This document shows, in pieces, positions 9,170 through 37,569 of a DNA stretch of 64,000 nt (position 1 is its first letter; every line of letters begins with the position of its first letter). The stretch lies in the sequence record PZ452578.1. One strand, written 5' to 3'. This DNA is from a phage. Below the pieces are notes generated by a model. The model saw only the letters and a list, made by a program, of their open reading frames with translations. It did not search any database and was not told where the DNA came from. The position numbers and the translations under genes were made by a program.

Positions 9170-9640
9170 TTAATCATGTTTCCACACCCCATCGGTATTT
9201 GACCAAAGTCGCTGATTATCTGATCCTCGCCACAGCTTTTTGGTCGGAAGATTTTTCTCATACTTCCCATCAATAATAACATCAACATATTTAAGCATTT
9301 CTAGTTGTTTAATATCTTCAAACTTGTACCCTGTCCACAACCAAATGCTTTTATTTGGATAAAGATTTTTTACTGTTTGAACAATGCAATGAACAACATC
9401 TCGGTTATCAGGATAAAGAGGGTCACCTCCGGTTATAGTTAATCCTTCTATATAATCATTATTCAAACATTCAATTAATTGTTCTAGTGTTTCACCGGTG
9501 AATGGAATACCATTTCTAGCATTCCATGTTGATTTATTATAACACCCTTCGCATTTATGCAAACAACCTGTAACGAAAAGAACGACCCTGCAACCAGGGC
9601 CATTCACAAAATCGCAAGGATAAAATCTATCATAATTCAT
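9170..9640 (-). CDS. nrdG: Anaerobic ribonucleotide reductase activating protein (radical SAM)
   Basis: 156 aa; CxxxCxxC cluster GCLHKCEGCYN; overlaps nrdD stop. Confidence 0.88.
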   Translation of the reverse strand: MNYDRFYPCDFVNGPGCRVVLFVTGCLHKCEGCYNKSTWNARNGIPFTGETLEQLIECLNNDYIEGLTITGGDPLYPDNRDVVHCIVQTVKNLYPNKSIWLWTGYKFEDIKQLEMLKYVDVIIDGKYEKNLPTKKLWRGSDNQRLWSNTDGVWKHD

Positions 9641-11454
9641 TGGTGTTTAACCCTATGCATGATTTCTTTATTTTTGCCAAGATTAAATCCGCGCTCGTTC
9701 GGATTTCCCAAATAGCCGCATGTTCTTCTTATGGTGTTCATCTTTTTAGGATCAGTTTCTCCACAAATAGAACAAACAAATCCGTTTTCAGTAGGAGTCA
9801 TTTCATGGGTACTTCCGCATGTAAAACATTTATCTACTGGCATATTAACACCAAAATAATCTAAATGTTGTGCAGCATAATCCCATACGGCCTCAAGGCC
9901 TTTTAAGTTATTTTTCATATCAGGAAGTTCAACATAAGAAATGTGACCACCTGTCGCAATGAAATGATATGGCGCTTCACGAGAAATCTTTTCAAACGGA
10001 GTAATATTTTCTTCTACTGAAACATGGAAACTGTTAGTGTACCAACCTTTATCGGTAACATCTTTTACGCTTCCATATTTTTCTGTATCGAGTTTACAGA
10101 AGCGATAACAAAGGTTTTCAGCAGGAGTCGAATATAAACTAAAAGCAAATCCAGTTCTTTCAGTCCACTGTTTAAGATGAGCATTCATTTTAGTTAAAAT
10201 TTCCTGTCCAATATCACGACCGACAAGAATATTCAATTCATGAATACCAATGTATCCTAGGGACACTGAACTTCTACCGTTTTTAAATAACTCAATTATG
10301 TCGTCATCAGGTTTAAGACGAACCCCGAATGCACCTTCTTGGTAAAGAATAGGAGCAACAGTAGCTTTAACTCCTTTTAAGGAACTAATTCTACACATCA
10401 AAGCTTCAAAACACAAATCCATACGTTCATTGAATAATTCAACAAATTTCTGTTCGTTAAATTGTGTTCCAATATAAGAATCTAATGCAATGCGAGGAAG
10501 ATTCAGTGTTACAACACCAAGATTATTACGTCCATCAAGAATTTCATTACCAGTCGAATCTTTCCATACGCTCAAGAAACTACGGCATCCCATCGGAGAA
10601 ACAGGAATAGATGAACCAGTGATAGCTTTATTGTTCTTAGCTGAAATAATATCAGGATACATCCTTTTGCTTGCACACTCTAAAGCAAGCTGCTTAATAT
10701 CATAGTTCGGATCGTCTTTATAAAGATTAACACCTTCTTCAACAAACATAACAAGCTTAGGGAAAATAGGAGTTATCCCATCACGACCAAGACCTTTAAT
10801 ACGATTTTTCAGAATTGCTTTCTGAATCATTCGTTCAGTCCAGTCAGTTCCCGTACCAAATGTAATTGTTACAAAAGGCGTTTGTCCGTTTGAACTAAAG
10901 AGAGTATTTACTTCATATTCATAAGCTTGAAATGCATCGTATACGTCTTTTTCTGTTTTAGATTGAGCATAATTCAACGCATCGGCGATTTGCCATTTTT
11001 CTGCATCCTCAATATGTTTTGCATAGGTGCGTTTAACATAAGGAGAAAGTACTTTATCTACATTCGCAAAAGTCGTTCCGCCGTATTGGTGAGAAGCAAC
11101 TTGCGCAGTAATTTGTGCCATAATTGCAGTAGCAACTCCAATTGATTTAGGAGTTTCAATCTGTGCATTACCTAGCTTAAATCCGTTTTCAAGCATTCCT
11201 TTTAAATCTACTAAACAACAATTAGTAAATGGAAGAGCAGGGGAATAATCAATATCATGGAAATGAATAATTCCGCTTTCATGCGCTTTCATAATAAAAG
11301 ACGGGACCATATTTTTGGCAATGTGTTTAGACACAATACCAGCCATAAGGTCCCGTTGAGTTGGAAAAACACGAGAATCTTTATTAGCATTCTCGTTTAA
11401 AAGGTCTTTATTAGTTTTATGAATCAATCCTTCAATTTCTTTTTCAATTGTCAT
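9637..11454 (-). CDS. nrdD: Anaerobic ribonucleoside-triphosphate reductase (class III, glycyl radical enzyme), uninterrupted
   Basis: 605-aa continuous ORF; C-terminal Zn ribbon CFTCGSTHEMTPTENGFVCSICGE and glycyl radical motif RRTCGYLG. Confidence 0.93.
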   Translation of the reverse strand: MTIEKEIEGLIHKTNKDLLNENANKDSRVFPTQRDLMAGIVSKHIAKNMVPSFIMKAHESGIIHFHDIDYSPALPFTNCCLVDLKGMLENGFKLGNAQIETPKSIGVATAIMAQITAQVASHQYGGTTFANVDKVLSPYVKRTYAKHIEDAEKWQIADALNYAQSKTEKDVYDAFQAYEYEVNTLFSSNGQTPFVTITFGTGTDWTERMIQKAILKNRIKGLGRDGITPIFPKLVMFVEEGVNLYKDDPNYDIKQLALECASKRMYPDIISAKNNKAITGSSIPVSPMGCRSFLSVWKDSTGNEILDGRNNLGVVTLNLPRIALDSYIGTQFNEQKFVELFNERMDLCFEALMCRISSLKGVKATVAPILYQEGAFGVRLKPDDDIIELFKNGRSSVSLGYIGIHELNILVGRDIGQEILTKMNAHLKQWTERTGFAFSLYSTPAENLCYRFCKLDTEKYGSVKDVTDKGWYTNSFHVSVEENITPFEKISREAPYHFIATGGHISYVELPDMKNNLKGLEAVWDYAAQHLDYFGVNMPVDKCFTCGSTHEMTPTENGFVCSICGETDPKKMNTIRRTCGYLGNPNERGFNLGKNKEIMHRVKHQ

Positions 11455-29543: not shown

Positions 29544-29803
29544 ATACTGGCTTCTTTGAGTTTCGTTTTAGCAATAGTTAACTGATCGAGGCTTTCAGCA
29601 TAATTCTTCGCGAGTTCATCATCTTCACAGCTATCAAATGCTTCCCAAAATTCATCGTATAAAGCATCAAAGATAAGTCCTAAACGAACTTCAGCGTCTT
29701 TAATAGCATTTACTTTACCGATTTTTTCGTCGGTATGTGGCTTATAACCTTTAATATCTTCAATCATATTTGACTTCCTCACCAGTGCATAAATCATATT
29801 CAA
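29501..29803 (-). CDS. Hypothetical protein (100 aa)
   Basis: ORF track. Confidence 0.4.
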
Positions 29804-29981
29804 CTAAACGAATAGGTTCATGAATGCCATATCCTTGAACAGAAATTTCTGTCGTAGGATAAATTCCATCAATATCACCCATATTCCAGGCTTCATTAAA
29901 TTGCTGTTCGCCTGAATTACTAAACCACTCGGCGAAAGCATTTAGCACATCTTTAGAACCTTCAATAATTATCTTTGCCAT
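29760..29981 (-). CDS. Hypothetical protein (73 aa)
   Basis: ORF track. Confidence 0.4.
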   Translation of the reverse strand: MAKIIIEGSKDVLNAFAEWFSNSGEQQFNEAWNMGDIDGIYPTTEISVQGYGIHEPIRLVEYDLCTGEEVKYD

Positions 29982-30343
29982 TACAAACTCTCAGTAAAGG
30001 TACGAGCGATAACGTCGCGCTGCTGTTCCGGAGTCAGAGAGTTAAAGCGAACTGCATAACCAGATACACGGATGGTCAGCTGCGGATATTTTTCCGGATG
30101 CTTAACTGCATCTTCCAGAGTTTCACGACGCAGAACGTTAACGTTCAGGTGTTGACCACCTTCAATTTTAATTGTAGGCTGTGGCTCAATTTCAATTTCA
30201 CGGGCATGCAAACCATAGAAAATTTCTGGGTCTACAAAAGAGTCCTCTTTAAAGGTTTTAGAAACGATAATTCGTGCTTGAATACCATCTTCAAAATAAA
30301 TAGTGCCTTTGTGTGTGCCTTCAAGAATTTGATATGCTTTCAT
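29981..30343 (-). CDS. Autonomous glycyl radical cofactor (GrcA/YfiD-like)
   Basis: 120 aa; C-terminus [59 protein letters not shown] with glycyl radical motif RVSGYAV; 3' half of gene is GC-rich. Confidence 0.75.
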
Positions 30344-30350
30344 ATAAACC

Positions 30351-30679
30351 TCAATTAGAAAATAAATTTATCCAAGATTGTTCTTTAATTAAAAACGGCT
30401 CAGAATCATATGCCATTAAACTTTGGGTGATTAGTCCTTTAAAAGGCCCATCAATAAATTCCATGGTAAAATATGGAATTTTATTCATTAGCCGTGCATT
30501 AGGAGCCGTGCACAAAACTCTGCATCCTTTGAATACGCCTTTTTGTAATTTGTATTGCTTGGGATAAAATTCGCTCAAAATGTTATTATTTGCTAAAATT
30601 TCAAAATGATTCACCAATTTATTTTTAATAGTTTTTGGCGAAAAATAAAGATATTCGAAAAGCTGAGTGTCTGTCATCA
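30351..30679 (-). CDS. Hypothetical protein (109 aa from MMTDTQ)
   Basis: ATGATG start overlapping upstream TGA. Confidence 0.4.
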
Positions 30680-31216
30680 TTGCATTCCGATTACGAAAAA
30701 CTGTGGACGAGTAATACCACCAATACAACATTTAATATTACAGCAGCAGTGTACAGTGTCAATATGGACACTATAAATCTTATCCATATCAGGAGATTTG
30801 ACAGGCTCATCAATTATATATAAAATTCGCGAAAGCGATAAACCTCTGAACTTGCTTCCTTTATTACCAATAAAACTGCGCACAGAATCAGTAAATAAAC
30901 GAAAACGTATATCATCATTAGAATAACGCGAAAATTCCTTTTTAATGTTATTTGCAGAAATTTTAGCGTAAGCTGAAGTATTAGAAAGAACAATAACTGT
31001 TCCGCCATCATACAGCCAATTAGCAGCAAAGTTAGTCACAGCAATTGATTTACCGGATTGACGTCCACCATCTAGTCGAAGTGTGCAATACTGTTTAAGT
31101 AAGTCTTCAAATGGCGGGATATATTCGTTTTTACAAATTTCTTCTACTCTAGCATCAGAATGGTGTGTAAAAGCATTCATCAGGGATAGATAAGGACCAG
31201 TTAAAAATGTTCTCAT
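30677..31216 (-). CDS. P-loop ATPase resembling the N-terminal ATPase core of terminase large subunits, Cys-rich C-terminus
   Basis: 179 aa; Walker A DGGRQSGKS, Walker B ILYIIDEP; C-terminal HCCCNIKCC. Confidence 0.5.
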   Translation of the reverse strand: MRTFLTGPYLSLMNAFTHHSDARVEEICKNEYIPPFEDLLKQYCTLRLDGGRQSGKSIAVTNFAANWLYDGGTVIVLSNTSAYAKISANNIKKEFSRYSNDDIRFRLFTDSVRSFIGNKGSKFRGLSLSRILYIIDEPVKSPDMDKIYSVHIDTVHCCCNIKCCIGGITRPQFFVIGMQ

Positions 31217-31356
31217 TTCTTCTCTCTAAATTTGGGCCATTCCGTGGCGCATGAATTGTCCATTTCTGTATTTACCCATTACCGCGCTTGGGCTCGACCT
31301 TATTACAGGTTGGCGGGAATCCCTCACAAAATCATGAGGTCCAGGTTGTTCCCATG

Positions 31357-31830
31357 TTATTTGAATGATTTAACGTACTGAATAGAACCTTTACTATTCA
31401 CAAAGGCAATTTTACCATTTTTGTTATACATGGTAGCAGTACGTTGATAGCCATAAGTTTGTTTACCAGATTGATAACCAACTAATGCGAAATTATCTTC
31501 ACCCATTTTATTCTGTTTAGCGCGAATACGTTCATGGCCATGTGCCATAAGAACCTTAGCATCACCAGTTGCAATGGATCTACGAGTTTTTTCATCTTCA
31601 ACTGTATTAACAAAGTCGTCAAATGAATCAAATTTAGCATGAGATTTATTATACAGTTTTCCATCTACTGCATAATTATATCCTTGTACATCCATCTCAA
31701 CTTCTGTACCATCATCCAGTACAGCAGTGATTTTCTGTCCTTTTTTAAATTTCAAAAGATCAGTAAAAGATTCAGCAATAATTTGAGAATTAATAGCTGC
31801 TTCAGTAATAAATTCTTGATAGGTTTTCAT
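31357..31830 (-). CDS. Internal protein (IPII/IPIII family) with capsid-targeting N-terminus
   Basis: 157 aa; MKTYQEFITEA leader with protease-site-like ITE/A. Confidence 0.7.
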   Translation of the reverse strand: MKTYQEFITEAAINSQIIAESFTDLLKFKKGQKITAVLDDGTEVEMDVQGYNYAVDGKLYNKSHAKFDSFDDFVNTVEDEKTRRSIATGDAKVLMAHGHERIRAKQNKMGEDNFALVGYQSGKQTYGYQRTATMYNKNGKIAFVNSKGSIQYVKSFK

Positions 31831-31846
31831 GTGTTTCCTTTAATTT

Positions 31847-32164
31847 TTATTCTTTAGGGAAGTTTTTAGAATATGCATCATAAAGCTTATTTCCAATACG
31901 GCGGAAAACTCTAGCCGCAAAACGATTTTCTGGGTTTTTAATCATGATTTGCATCATATAAGTACCCGCGTCAGAAAGAGCTTCTTCATAGTACCCGTTA
32001 ATTTCTTTAAGAGTCCTACGTTTACCACCAGGACCATCAACAGTGATTTTCCATTTACCTGTAGAAGTACGACTTGGCGGCTCAACTTGTTCAATCCAGA
32101 TATAACCGCCTTCTACACGTTGTCCTGCAGCAGATTCTGCAATAAATTCTTGATATGTTTTCAT
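31847..32164 (-). CDS. Internal protein (IPII/IPIII family)
   Basis: 105 aa; MKTYQEFIAES leader; early promoter upstream. Confidence 0.7.
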   Translation of the reverse strand: MKTYQEFIAESAAGQRVEGGYIWIEQVEPPSRTSTGKWKITVDGPGGKRRTLKEINGYYEEALSDAGTYMMQIMIKNPENRFAARVFRRIGNKLYDAYSKNFPKE

Positions 32165-32220
32165 GTGTTTCCTTTAAATATTTTAATTAGTATAATTTAT
32201 CTATTTAAGTAACTGTGAAT

Positions 32221-32250
32221 ATACTATCACAATTCCAAGAGAAAGTAAAC
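32221..32250 (-). promoter_or_regulatory. T4-type early promoter (internal protein genes)
   Basis: minus strand GTTTAC-18nt-TAGTAT with TGTGA. Confidence 0.5.
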
Positions 32251-32254
32251 AGCT

Positions 32255-37469: not shown

Positions 37470-37473
37470 AAAT

Positions 37474-37560
37474 TGGTGGGGAGTGATGGAGTCGAACCAC
37501 CCGAGTCGCAATGACAATGGATTTACAGTCCACACCGCTACCTCTACGGGATAACTCCCC
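37474..37560 (-). tRNA. tRNA-like, Tyr-type (anticodon GUA, long variable arm), non-canonical D region
   Basis: Acceptor GGGGAGT/ACTCCCC, anticodon loop CTGTAAA, T-loop TTCGACT, CCA encoded; 4-nt linker before 3-bp D stem. Confidence 0.45.
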
Positions 37561-37569
37561 TAATTAATT

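Follow-up and report, generated by a model that had tools for sequence, protein, structure and literature searches.

A phage of the T4 type is virulent and degrades the DNA of its host, and the locus described here (sequence record PZ452578.1; the window, i.e. the whole stretch of 64,000 nucleotides that was analysed) has within its vs.6 gene a block that reads as E. coli sequence. It raises three questions: where this block came from, whether it was received once or repeatedly, and which glycyl-radical enzyme the gene product serves. The vs.6 gene is already known, as are its biochemical activity and the fact that T4-like phages conserve it (Nolan 2006); T4 vs.6 bears the RefSeq name 'autonomous glycyl radical cofactor GrcA', and the annotation itself is ordinary. 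In the literature searched there is no description of nucleotide-level chimerism or repeated host patching of vs.6, though an earlier mention is possible, as the two most pertinent older sources (Wagner 2001 and the 2003 review of the T4 genome) lay outside its scope. Of more note is how the gene has evolved: although the phage is virulent and destroys the DNA of its host, it has kept a block of 175 nt in which the consensus of the phage population is identical to the host gene, and related phages on Klebsiella and Raoultella carry an equivalent block from their own hosts.

Table 1. Positions of vs.6, its parts and nearby features in the window
Feature	Position	Strand	Description
vs.6 (Y06I) CDS	29981..30343	-	ATG-to-TAA ORF; GrcA-like autonomous glycyl-radical protein, 120 aa
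Shine-Dalgarno-like GAGG	30349..30352	-	5 nt upstream of the vs.6 ATG; overlaps the vs.7 stop; read from sequence
Phage-type 5' half	30166..30343	-	gene nt 1-178, residues 1-59; AT-rich, anciently diverged from the GrcA N-terminal region
Host-derived patch	29991..30165	-	gene nt 179-353, residues 60-117; glycyl-radical domain; corresponds to Escherichia grcA nt 200-374
Gly95 codon (GGT)	30059..30061	-	predicted radical glycine in RVSGYAV, from alignments to 6owr and PflB 698-759; equivalent to GrcA Gly102 and PflB Gly734
Phage-type 3' end	29981..29990	-	last three sense codons GAG AGT TTG and stop TAA
MKTYQEFI-leader ORF	31357-31830		Pfam DUF7412
MKTYQEFI-leader ORF	31847-32164		

The vs.6 gene and its surroundings

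Judged by its sequence, the open reading frame is the orthologue of T4 vs.6: the gene differs from that of T4 at 9 of 363 nt (354/363 identical, 97.5%), the protein differs at two of 120 residues (I58/V and R73/H), and phrog_1209, the orthologous group of T4 vs.6 in PHROGs, matches it over its full length (residues 1-120, E=2.8e-62). The gene order vs.8-vs.7-vs.6-vs.5 is kept as in T4, placing this member of the phrog group between vs.7 and vs.5, and the window as a whole is a T4-type (Tequatrovirus) segment in which T4 lysozyme e, nudE, regB, vs, tk and the vs.8 to vs.5 genes follow in T4 order. Relatives of the gene were found in 1,522 phage records in GenBank, the closest being that of Shigella phage SfPhi01 (99.2%). 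The stop codon overlaps the ATG of vs.5 (ORF 29760..29981). Between 28.0 and 32.5 kb, a scan for consensus promoters and terminators gave sites no more numerous than expected by chance, and a scan against Rfam gave no match.

The product is a small stand-alone protein with the Gly_radical domain at its end and RVSGYAV at residues 92-98, which is the layout of GrcA/YfiD. Pfam Gly_radical (PF01228) matches with 66.7 bits (cut-off 22.2), and in a search of the PDB the protein matches E. coli GrcA (6owr, E=1e-41, residues 22-120 in the phmmer alignment) as well as PflB residues 698-759. The NCBIfam equivalog model for GrcA, TIGR04365, gives 152.4 bits (E=6.7e-45, residues 20-120), below its cut-off of 170 bits because the N-terminal half is divergent. 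We file the gene as probably GrcA-like in function and, by group membership, as a vs.6 orthologue.

Some differences from T4 were seen upstream. T4 denV, located in T4 between vs.8 and ipII, has no tblastn match anywhere in the 64-kb window, and at 31217-32254 the place of T4 ipII and ipIII is taken by two different ORFs, each beginning with the internal-protein leader MKTYQEFI (Table 1). The alignment of T4 Vs.8 (219 aa), with 95% identity, runs from 31327 to 30680 (region 30677-31327), and the listed vs.8 ORF starts only at the ATG at 31216 and has 179 aa; an in-frame stop or a different start may lie behind this, and the 540-nt form is annotated in other Tequatroviruses too.

A chimeric gene with a host-derived patch

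A gapless alignment pairs gene nt 179-363 with nt 200-384 of E. coli grcA and matches at 181 of 185 bases, all four mismatches being synonymous, and within nt 179-353 a single base of 175 is mismatched to E. coli K-12-type grcA. The match is present in all complete E. coli genomes searched (5,426/5,426). The preliminary description of this DNA had called the C-terminal end near-identical to E. coli GrcA, and indeed 60 of the last 61 residues (60-120) are the same. In a codon-guided alignment, codons 60-117 are identical to E. coli grcA at 172/174 bases (98.9%; third positions 98%) and codons 22-59 at 49% (third positions 42%), while the last three sense codons match E. coli at one third position of three. 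The 5' half has no nucleotide similarity to grcA, and past the stop codon there is no similarity to the E. coli grcA locus. With its sharp breakpoints and host-like G+C inside, vs.6 has the makeup of a psbA-type mosaic gene.

The 3' 185 nt have a G+C content of 0.476, against 0.348 for the 5' 178 nt and 0.349 for the window. Calculation thus agrees with the earlier impressions of a 3' half richer in G+C than its flanks and of an AT-rich, divergent N-terminal half, and the approximate limits given then (29990-30170) lie close to the measured patch. Only 1% of the 185-nt intervals in the 64 kb are as G+C-rich as the 3' part of vs.6, the others being the tRNA cluster and a stretch near 57 kb. In a megablast search with the whole window, the vs.6 patch was the only match to E. 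coli chromosomes.

Three observations were made elsewhere in the window. The segment 56967-57557, the only other non-tRNA stretch to reach the G+C of the patch over 185 nt, has no megablast match to E. coli. Positions 37471-37563 in the phage tRNA cluster are 91.5% identical to an annotated tRNA-Tyr on the E. coli plasmid record NZ_CP077546.1. A 25-kb chunk of the window matches 264 places in E. coli plasmids at 80-95%.

When the N-terminal halves are compared alone, BLASTP aligns vs.6 with GrcA residues 28-66 at 13/39 identical positions (33%, E=2e-5), so that a GrcA-specific homology extends beyond the PFL-like tail. Since the N-terminal halves are still homologous, the entire gene goes back to a grcA-like ancestor, and the young sequence is confined to its 3' part. 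The limits of the patch are exactly those of the GrcA region with homology to PflB 698-759, and the patch was copied from grcA and not from pflB: a 12-residue stretch within it is of the GrcA type, and PflB has MNREMLLDAMEN there.

A separate case of grcA and pflB sequence in one gene was seen in the metagenomic locus L205 (OHAV01008836.1, 401-784), an E. coli-type grcA in which residues 77-88 are of the PflB type (MNREMLLDAMEN) and 90 nt are identical to pflB; this is either gene conversion between the grcA and pflB paralogues within the host or an assembly chimera, the contig being 1.7 kb long.

The direction of transfer can be read from the host genes. The two halves of E. coli grcA are 84.3% and 84.4% identical to those of Salmonella and are evenly diverged from other enterobacterial grcA genes too, and two Klebsiella alleles (L175 and L176) also differ evenly, at 8/198 and 7/186 sites. 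Because the halves of the host gene are equally diverged and only the phage genes are mosaic, the transfer went from host to phage. The patch occurs at 95% identity or more in 639 phage records in GenBank (Tequatrovirus and Mosigvirus, T4 included), always in frame, starting at grcA nt 199-202 and never farther upstream.

These data bear on the possibility that host DNA has contaminated the assembly or, conversely, that E. coli acquired the 3' half of its gene from a phage. A short host-identical stretch is the classic sign of contamination in a phage assembly, and contamination is excluded here because the same in-frame patch with identical junctions recurs in 639 independently sequenced phage genomes, among them T4; acquisition from a phage is contradicted by the even divergence of E. 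coli and Klebsiella grcA from their orthologues over the whole length, and the G+C of the patch is host-like rather than phage-like. We give this possibility a negligible chance.

The preliminary description had suggested a mosaic gene with a recently captured host module. The mosaic structure and the host origin hold; the recency does not apply to this phage, because T4 (three mismatches) and 639 phage records of two genera share the patch. For the same reason the decisive comparison put forward at the time, whether identity to the host gene is any higher than to the T4 homologue, was ill-posed: it comes out at 181/185 for the host and 182/185 for T4, literally no higher, because T4 carries the same host patch.

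Selection on the protein fails to account for the identity in nucleotides, as seen from phage RB16, which has the identical 61-aa tail and yet is only 83-85% identical at the nucleotide level to any bacterial grcA. RB43 and KP15 have near-identical tails and nucleotide identities in the same range; in CC31 the 3' module is about 80% identical to grcA, and in the E. coli Krischvirus AV108 about 71%. At codons 71-82 the E. coli-type ...ETLEDAVKH... is present in RB16 and RB43 (L097/L099), which are E. coli phages, and the Klebsiella-type ...ETLLDAVEH... in KP15 (L100), a close relative that infects Klebsiella; these residue types could be older, ameliorated conversions or protein-level adaptation.

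Age and recurrence of the patch

Nine Tequatrovirus and five Mosigvirus vs.6 genes were compared. The 5' half holds eight fixed differences between the genera and diverges by 10.8% overall and 21.6% at third positions, whereas the patch (nt 179-353) holds none, diverges by 6.5% at third positions, and is overall no more different between genera (2.5%) than within them (1.8-2.6%). For the window gene against that of one Mosigvirus (L088), third positions differ at 15/59 sites in the 5' half and 3/58 in the patch (Fisher p=0.004). In a sliding comparison between the genera, an island of 95-98% identity lies exactly over the patch with flanks at 65-90%, and fixed genus differences at nt 170 and nt 360 bracket it at 8 nt upstream and 7 nt downstream. 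The last codons are GAG AGT TTG in Tequatrovirus, GAG AGT CTA in Mosigvirus and GAA AGC CTG in E. coli, so lineage-specific sequence resumes in the last 7 nt. The patch consensus of the 14 genes is exactly the E. coli K-12-type sequence. By these comparisons the patch is younger than the split between Tequatrovirus and Mosigvirus.

A single ancient capture in the common ancestor of Tequatrovirus and Mosigvirus, inherited vertically since and still close to E. coli through slow evolution, would account for two features found in all 639 records, the junction on the 5' side and the last codons of phage type. It would also fit the zero to five private patch changes per phage, none of them E. coli alleles, as after one capture followed by radiation. 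Against it, the patch has no fixed differences between the genera where the adjacent 5' half has eight, and selection on codon usage would affect both halves of one mRNA; the Jiaodaviruses described below, with other donors and imported host polymorphisms, are a further objection. We regard it as quite unlikely.

Another way to make the patch uniform is spread from phage to phage, in which one capture was followed by recombination between genera or strains in co-infected cells, the host contributing nothing more. Recombination among T-even phages is avid, one Tequatrovirus and one Mosigvirus have homoplasies in common at nt 265 and nt 282, and the pattern of these two genera, taken alone, could arise so; the Jiaodavirus patches, too, resemble shuffled mixtures of alleles. 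Both crossovers would, however, have had to fall within the 8 nt upstream and the 7 nt downstream of the patch, and crossovers in such tiny intervals are expected only if homology ends there, as homology to the host does. PMC6024577 reports that RB69-type phages do not recombine with T4, and exchange among phages cannot create the K. pneumoniae-type and Raoultella-type haplotypes seen in Klebsiella phages. We therefore consider such spread, as the sole source of uniformity, rather unlikely.

The Klebsiella phages of the genus Jiaodavirus have patches of other origin. In JD18, third-position G+C is 0.25 in the 5' half and 0.58 in the 3' module; over nt 181-344 the gene is identical at 161 of 164 bases to a grcA locus from a metagenome (L176), and it ends in 19 nt of phage-type sequence, encoding TFTEAL. 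Locus L176 is chromosomal, being collinear with Klebsiella and Raoultella loci, and encodes a protein identical to the GrcA of the K. pneumoniae complex. In a set of seven Jiaodavirus isolates, the variable sites number 12 of 177 nt in the 5' half, 23 in the 164-nt patch and none in the last 19 nt. The sites that vary among Klebsiella-type grcA alleles (24 host-polymorphic sites) take up 15 of the 23 variable patch sites (hypergeometric p=6e-10; third positions only, p=8e-4). In one of the phages, pzk-kv6-1, 11 sites of the patch deviate from the consensus of the genus. Nine of them, including three transversions, carry the states of another allele (L177) whose protein is the Raoultella GrcA; in the 5' half, this phage and JD18 differ at only 2 of 177 sites. 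A Jiaodavirus contig from a metagenome (L161) has flanks 97% identical to JD18 and a patch identical at 146/146 bases to another K. pneumoniae-complex allele; its patch lies at the contig end and could be partly chimeric, and it is therefore supportive only. By these matches the Jiaodavirus patches are equivalent to that of vs.6 and are assigned to grcA alleles of the K. pneumoniae complex and Raoultella. More than one event, with different donors or host alleles in related phages, has taken place, as in psbA-type recombination, and since patches from other donors have brought in host polymorphism the process is demonstrably repeatable.

The Jiaodavirus donors were found only through a scan of metagenomes; the GTDB representative of a Klebsiella species was rejected as donor, its identity being only 86-95%. 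Several IMG/VR loci were likewise rejected as phage genes: L112, with 91% identity to the grcA of Yersinia, is a normal bacterial gene whose product begins MITGIQ..., and L153, L154 and L157 are full-length bacterial pflB. The sister loci of the latter (L155-L160) share their 16-120 match, and the contigs of L112 and L153-L160 hold ordinary bacterial grcA or pflB (as seen for L112, L153, L154 and L157), i.e. they are prophage flanks or misclassified DNA. Such contigs in a viral collection give false signals of a host-like phage gene if taken at face value. An exact-pattern search of IMG/VR gave no further T4-like copies beyond the six contigs already in the set.

We think it highly probable that vs.6 is a chimeric PFL spare-part gene whose residues 60-117 have been repeatedly overwritten by host grcA through homologous recombination. 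The lack of genus structure in the patch, together with the host-allele patches of the Jiaodaviruses, is what leads us to read the pattern as recurrent host-to-phage gene conversion. T4 can recombine with homologous cytosine-containing DNA, as in marker rescue from plasmids. An old, phage-diverged grcA homologue would have had residues 60-117 overwritten by patch gene conversion from the host chromosomal grcA, the patch being presumably the only block in which the old phage copy and the host gene were similar enough to pair. The phage genome would recombine with fragments of the host chromosome, giving an in-frame patch replacement with fixed ends; the ends of the tract would be set where phage-host homology stops, on the 5' side at the start of a 10-residue block and on the 3' side a few codons before the stop. 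A patch that is already host-like should make further exchange with the same host easier. The donors were Escherichia for Tequatrovirus and Mosigvirus, and K. pneumoniae-complex and Raoultella alleles for Jiaodavirus. We infer both this recombination mechanism and the in vivo role discussed below, and take the biochemical function from published work on the T4 protein.

Conversion does not follow the isolation host quickly. Tequatroviruses SG1, isolated on Salmonella, and PYps11T, isolated on Yersinia, retain the E. coli-type patch, and no phage record has more than 90% identity to Salmonella grcA, so conversion is occasional or needs high homology. The private variants of the coliphage patches were not found as E. 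coli alleles (the best match of the APCEc01 patch among 5,426 genomes is 97.1%) and therefore reflect the time elapsed since the last conversion.

On balance we favour a wider reading, in which the vs.6 module may be a permanent route by which virulent T-even-type phages recombine with the chromosome of the host, re-copied from any host grcA that is similar enough, kept in register with host PflA/PflB, and recording whether the recent host belonged to Escherichia, the K. pneumoniae complex or Raoultella. If this is true, the module is a clear and tractable instance of gene conversion from host to lytic phage that is still going on, in the phage family that has been studied best. The vs.6/grcA pair would offer a natural system in which gene flow from a host into a lytic phage is easily assayed, and the patch a possible marker of the recent host clade of a T-even-type phage. 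There is also a practical side, as read mapping or primers touching the patch cannot separate phage from host DNA. The grcA (vs.6) gene has been picked as a family-level PCR/qPCR marker for Straboviridae (PMC12845203); its primers lie in the phage-type 5' half and the 3' end, so that the host-identical patch is avoided.

Function and comparison with known systems

The preliminary description noted that the phage also carries nrdD and nrdG, which is correct (9637-11454 and 9170-9640, respectively), and proposed that the spare glycyl-radical domain could rescue oxygen-cleaved NrdD. As a rival to a role with PFL, this would mean a spare part for the phage's own NrdD, activated by NrdG. Oxygen cleaves all glycyl-radical enzymes in the same way, spare parts for other enzymes of this type have been speculated upon (PMC8683613), and a role of vs.6 in nucleotide metabolism has been guessed (Nolan 2006). 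The sequences point elsewhere. The vs.6 protein has no significant similarity to the NrdD of the window, its C-terminal region included (BLASTP E=4), and its PDB matches are GrcA, PflB and PFL-like enzymes, with NrdD absent. The tail of the window NrdD reads ...CFTCGSTHE...CSICGE...RRTCGYLG, with the radical site after a Cys-rich zinc region, whereas the vs.6 motif RVSGYAV is identical in PflB and GrcA. The source of the patch is the PFL spare part of the host and not nrdD. In the passages of PMC8683613 that treat Wagner 2001, YfiD and T4 Y06I are activated by PFL activase (PFL-AE) and restore oxygen-cleaved PFL in vitro, and the same article counts them as the only two validated spare-part proteins. 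Rescue of NrdD is thus very improbable, and we do not retain it.

A PFL spare part is indicated because the motif and domain match GrcA and PflB and because of the published activity of T4 Y06I. Most likely vs.6 would maintain the PFL activity of the infected host when oxygen levels fluctuate, rather than repair NrdD; the literature searched reports no in vivo role for it. The host activase PflA would be expected to install the radical on Gly95 during infection, and the radical-bearing protein, a stand-alone domain of 14 kDa, would dock into host PflB cut by oxygen at Gly734. Docking would restore fermentative production of acetyl-CoA and formate while host protein synthesis is shut off.

Compared with T4 vs.6, the gene of the window is an orthologue with the same neighbours (vs.8, vs.7 and vs.5) and the same host-derived patch and junctions, and differs in having four mismatches to E. 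coli in nt 179-363 where T4 has three. With E. coli GrcA (YfiD, 6owr) the protein shares small size and a terminal glycyl-radical domain; its N-terminal half, however, is only 33% identical and 7 residues shorter, and the gene sits in a phage early-gene block without the host regulatory context of grcA. To the C-terminal domain of PflB (698-759) the patch corresponds exactly, RVSGYAV included.

The closest known phenomenon is the intragenic host-phage recombination in cyanophage psbA/psbD (Zeidner 2005; Sullivan 2006, PMC1484495), in which a T4-like phage likewise carries a host-derived metabolic gene with patchy G+C and segments exchanged with the host. The present system differs from it in three respects: vs.6 is carried by coliphages and Klebsiella phages that are virulent and break down the DNA of the host; the patch consists of one block of 164-175 nt whose ends are fixed where homology stops; and it is 98-100% identical to its donor, with several donors that can be named.
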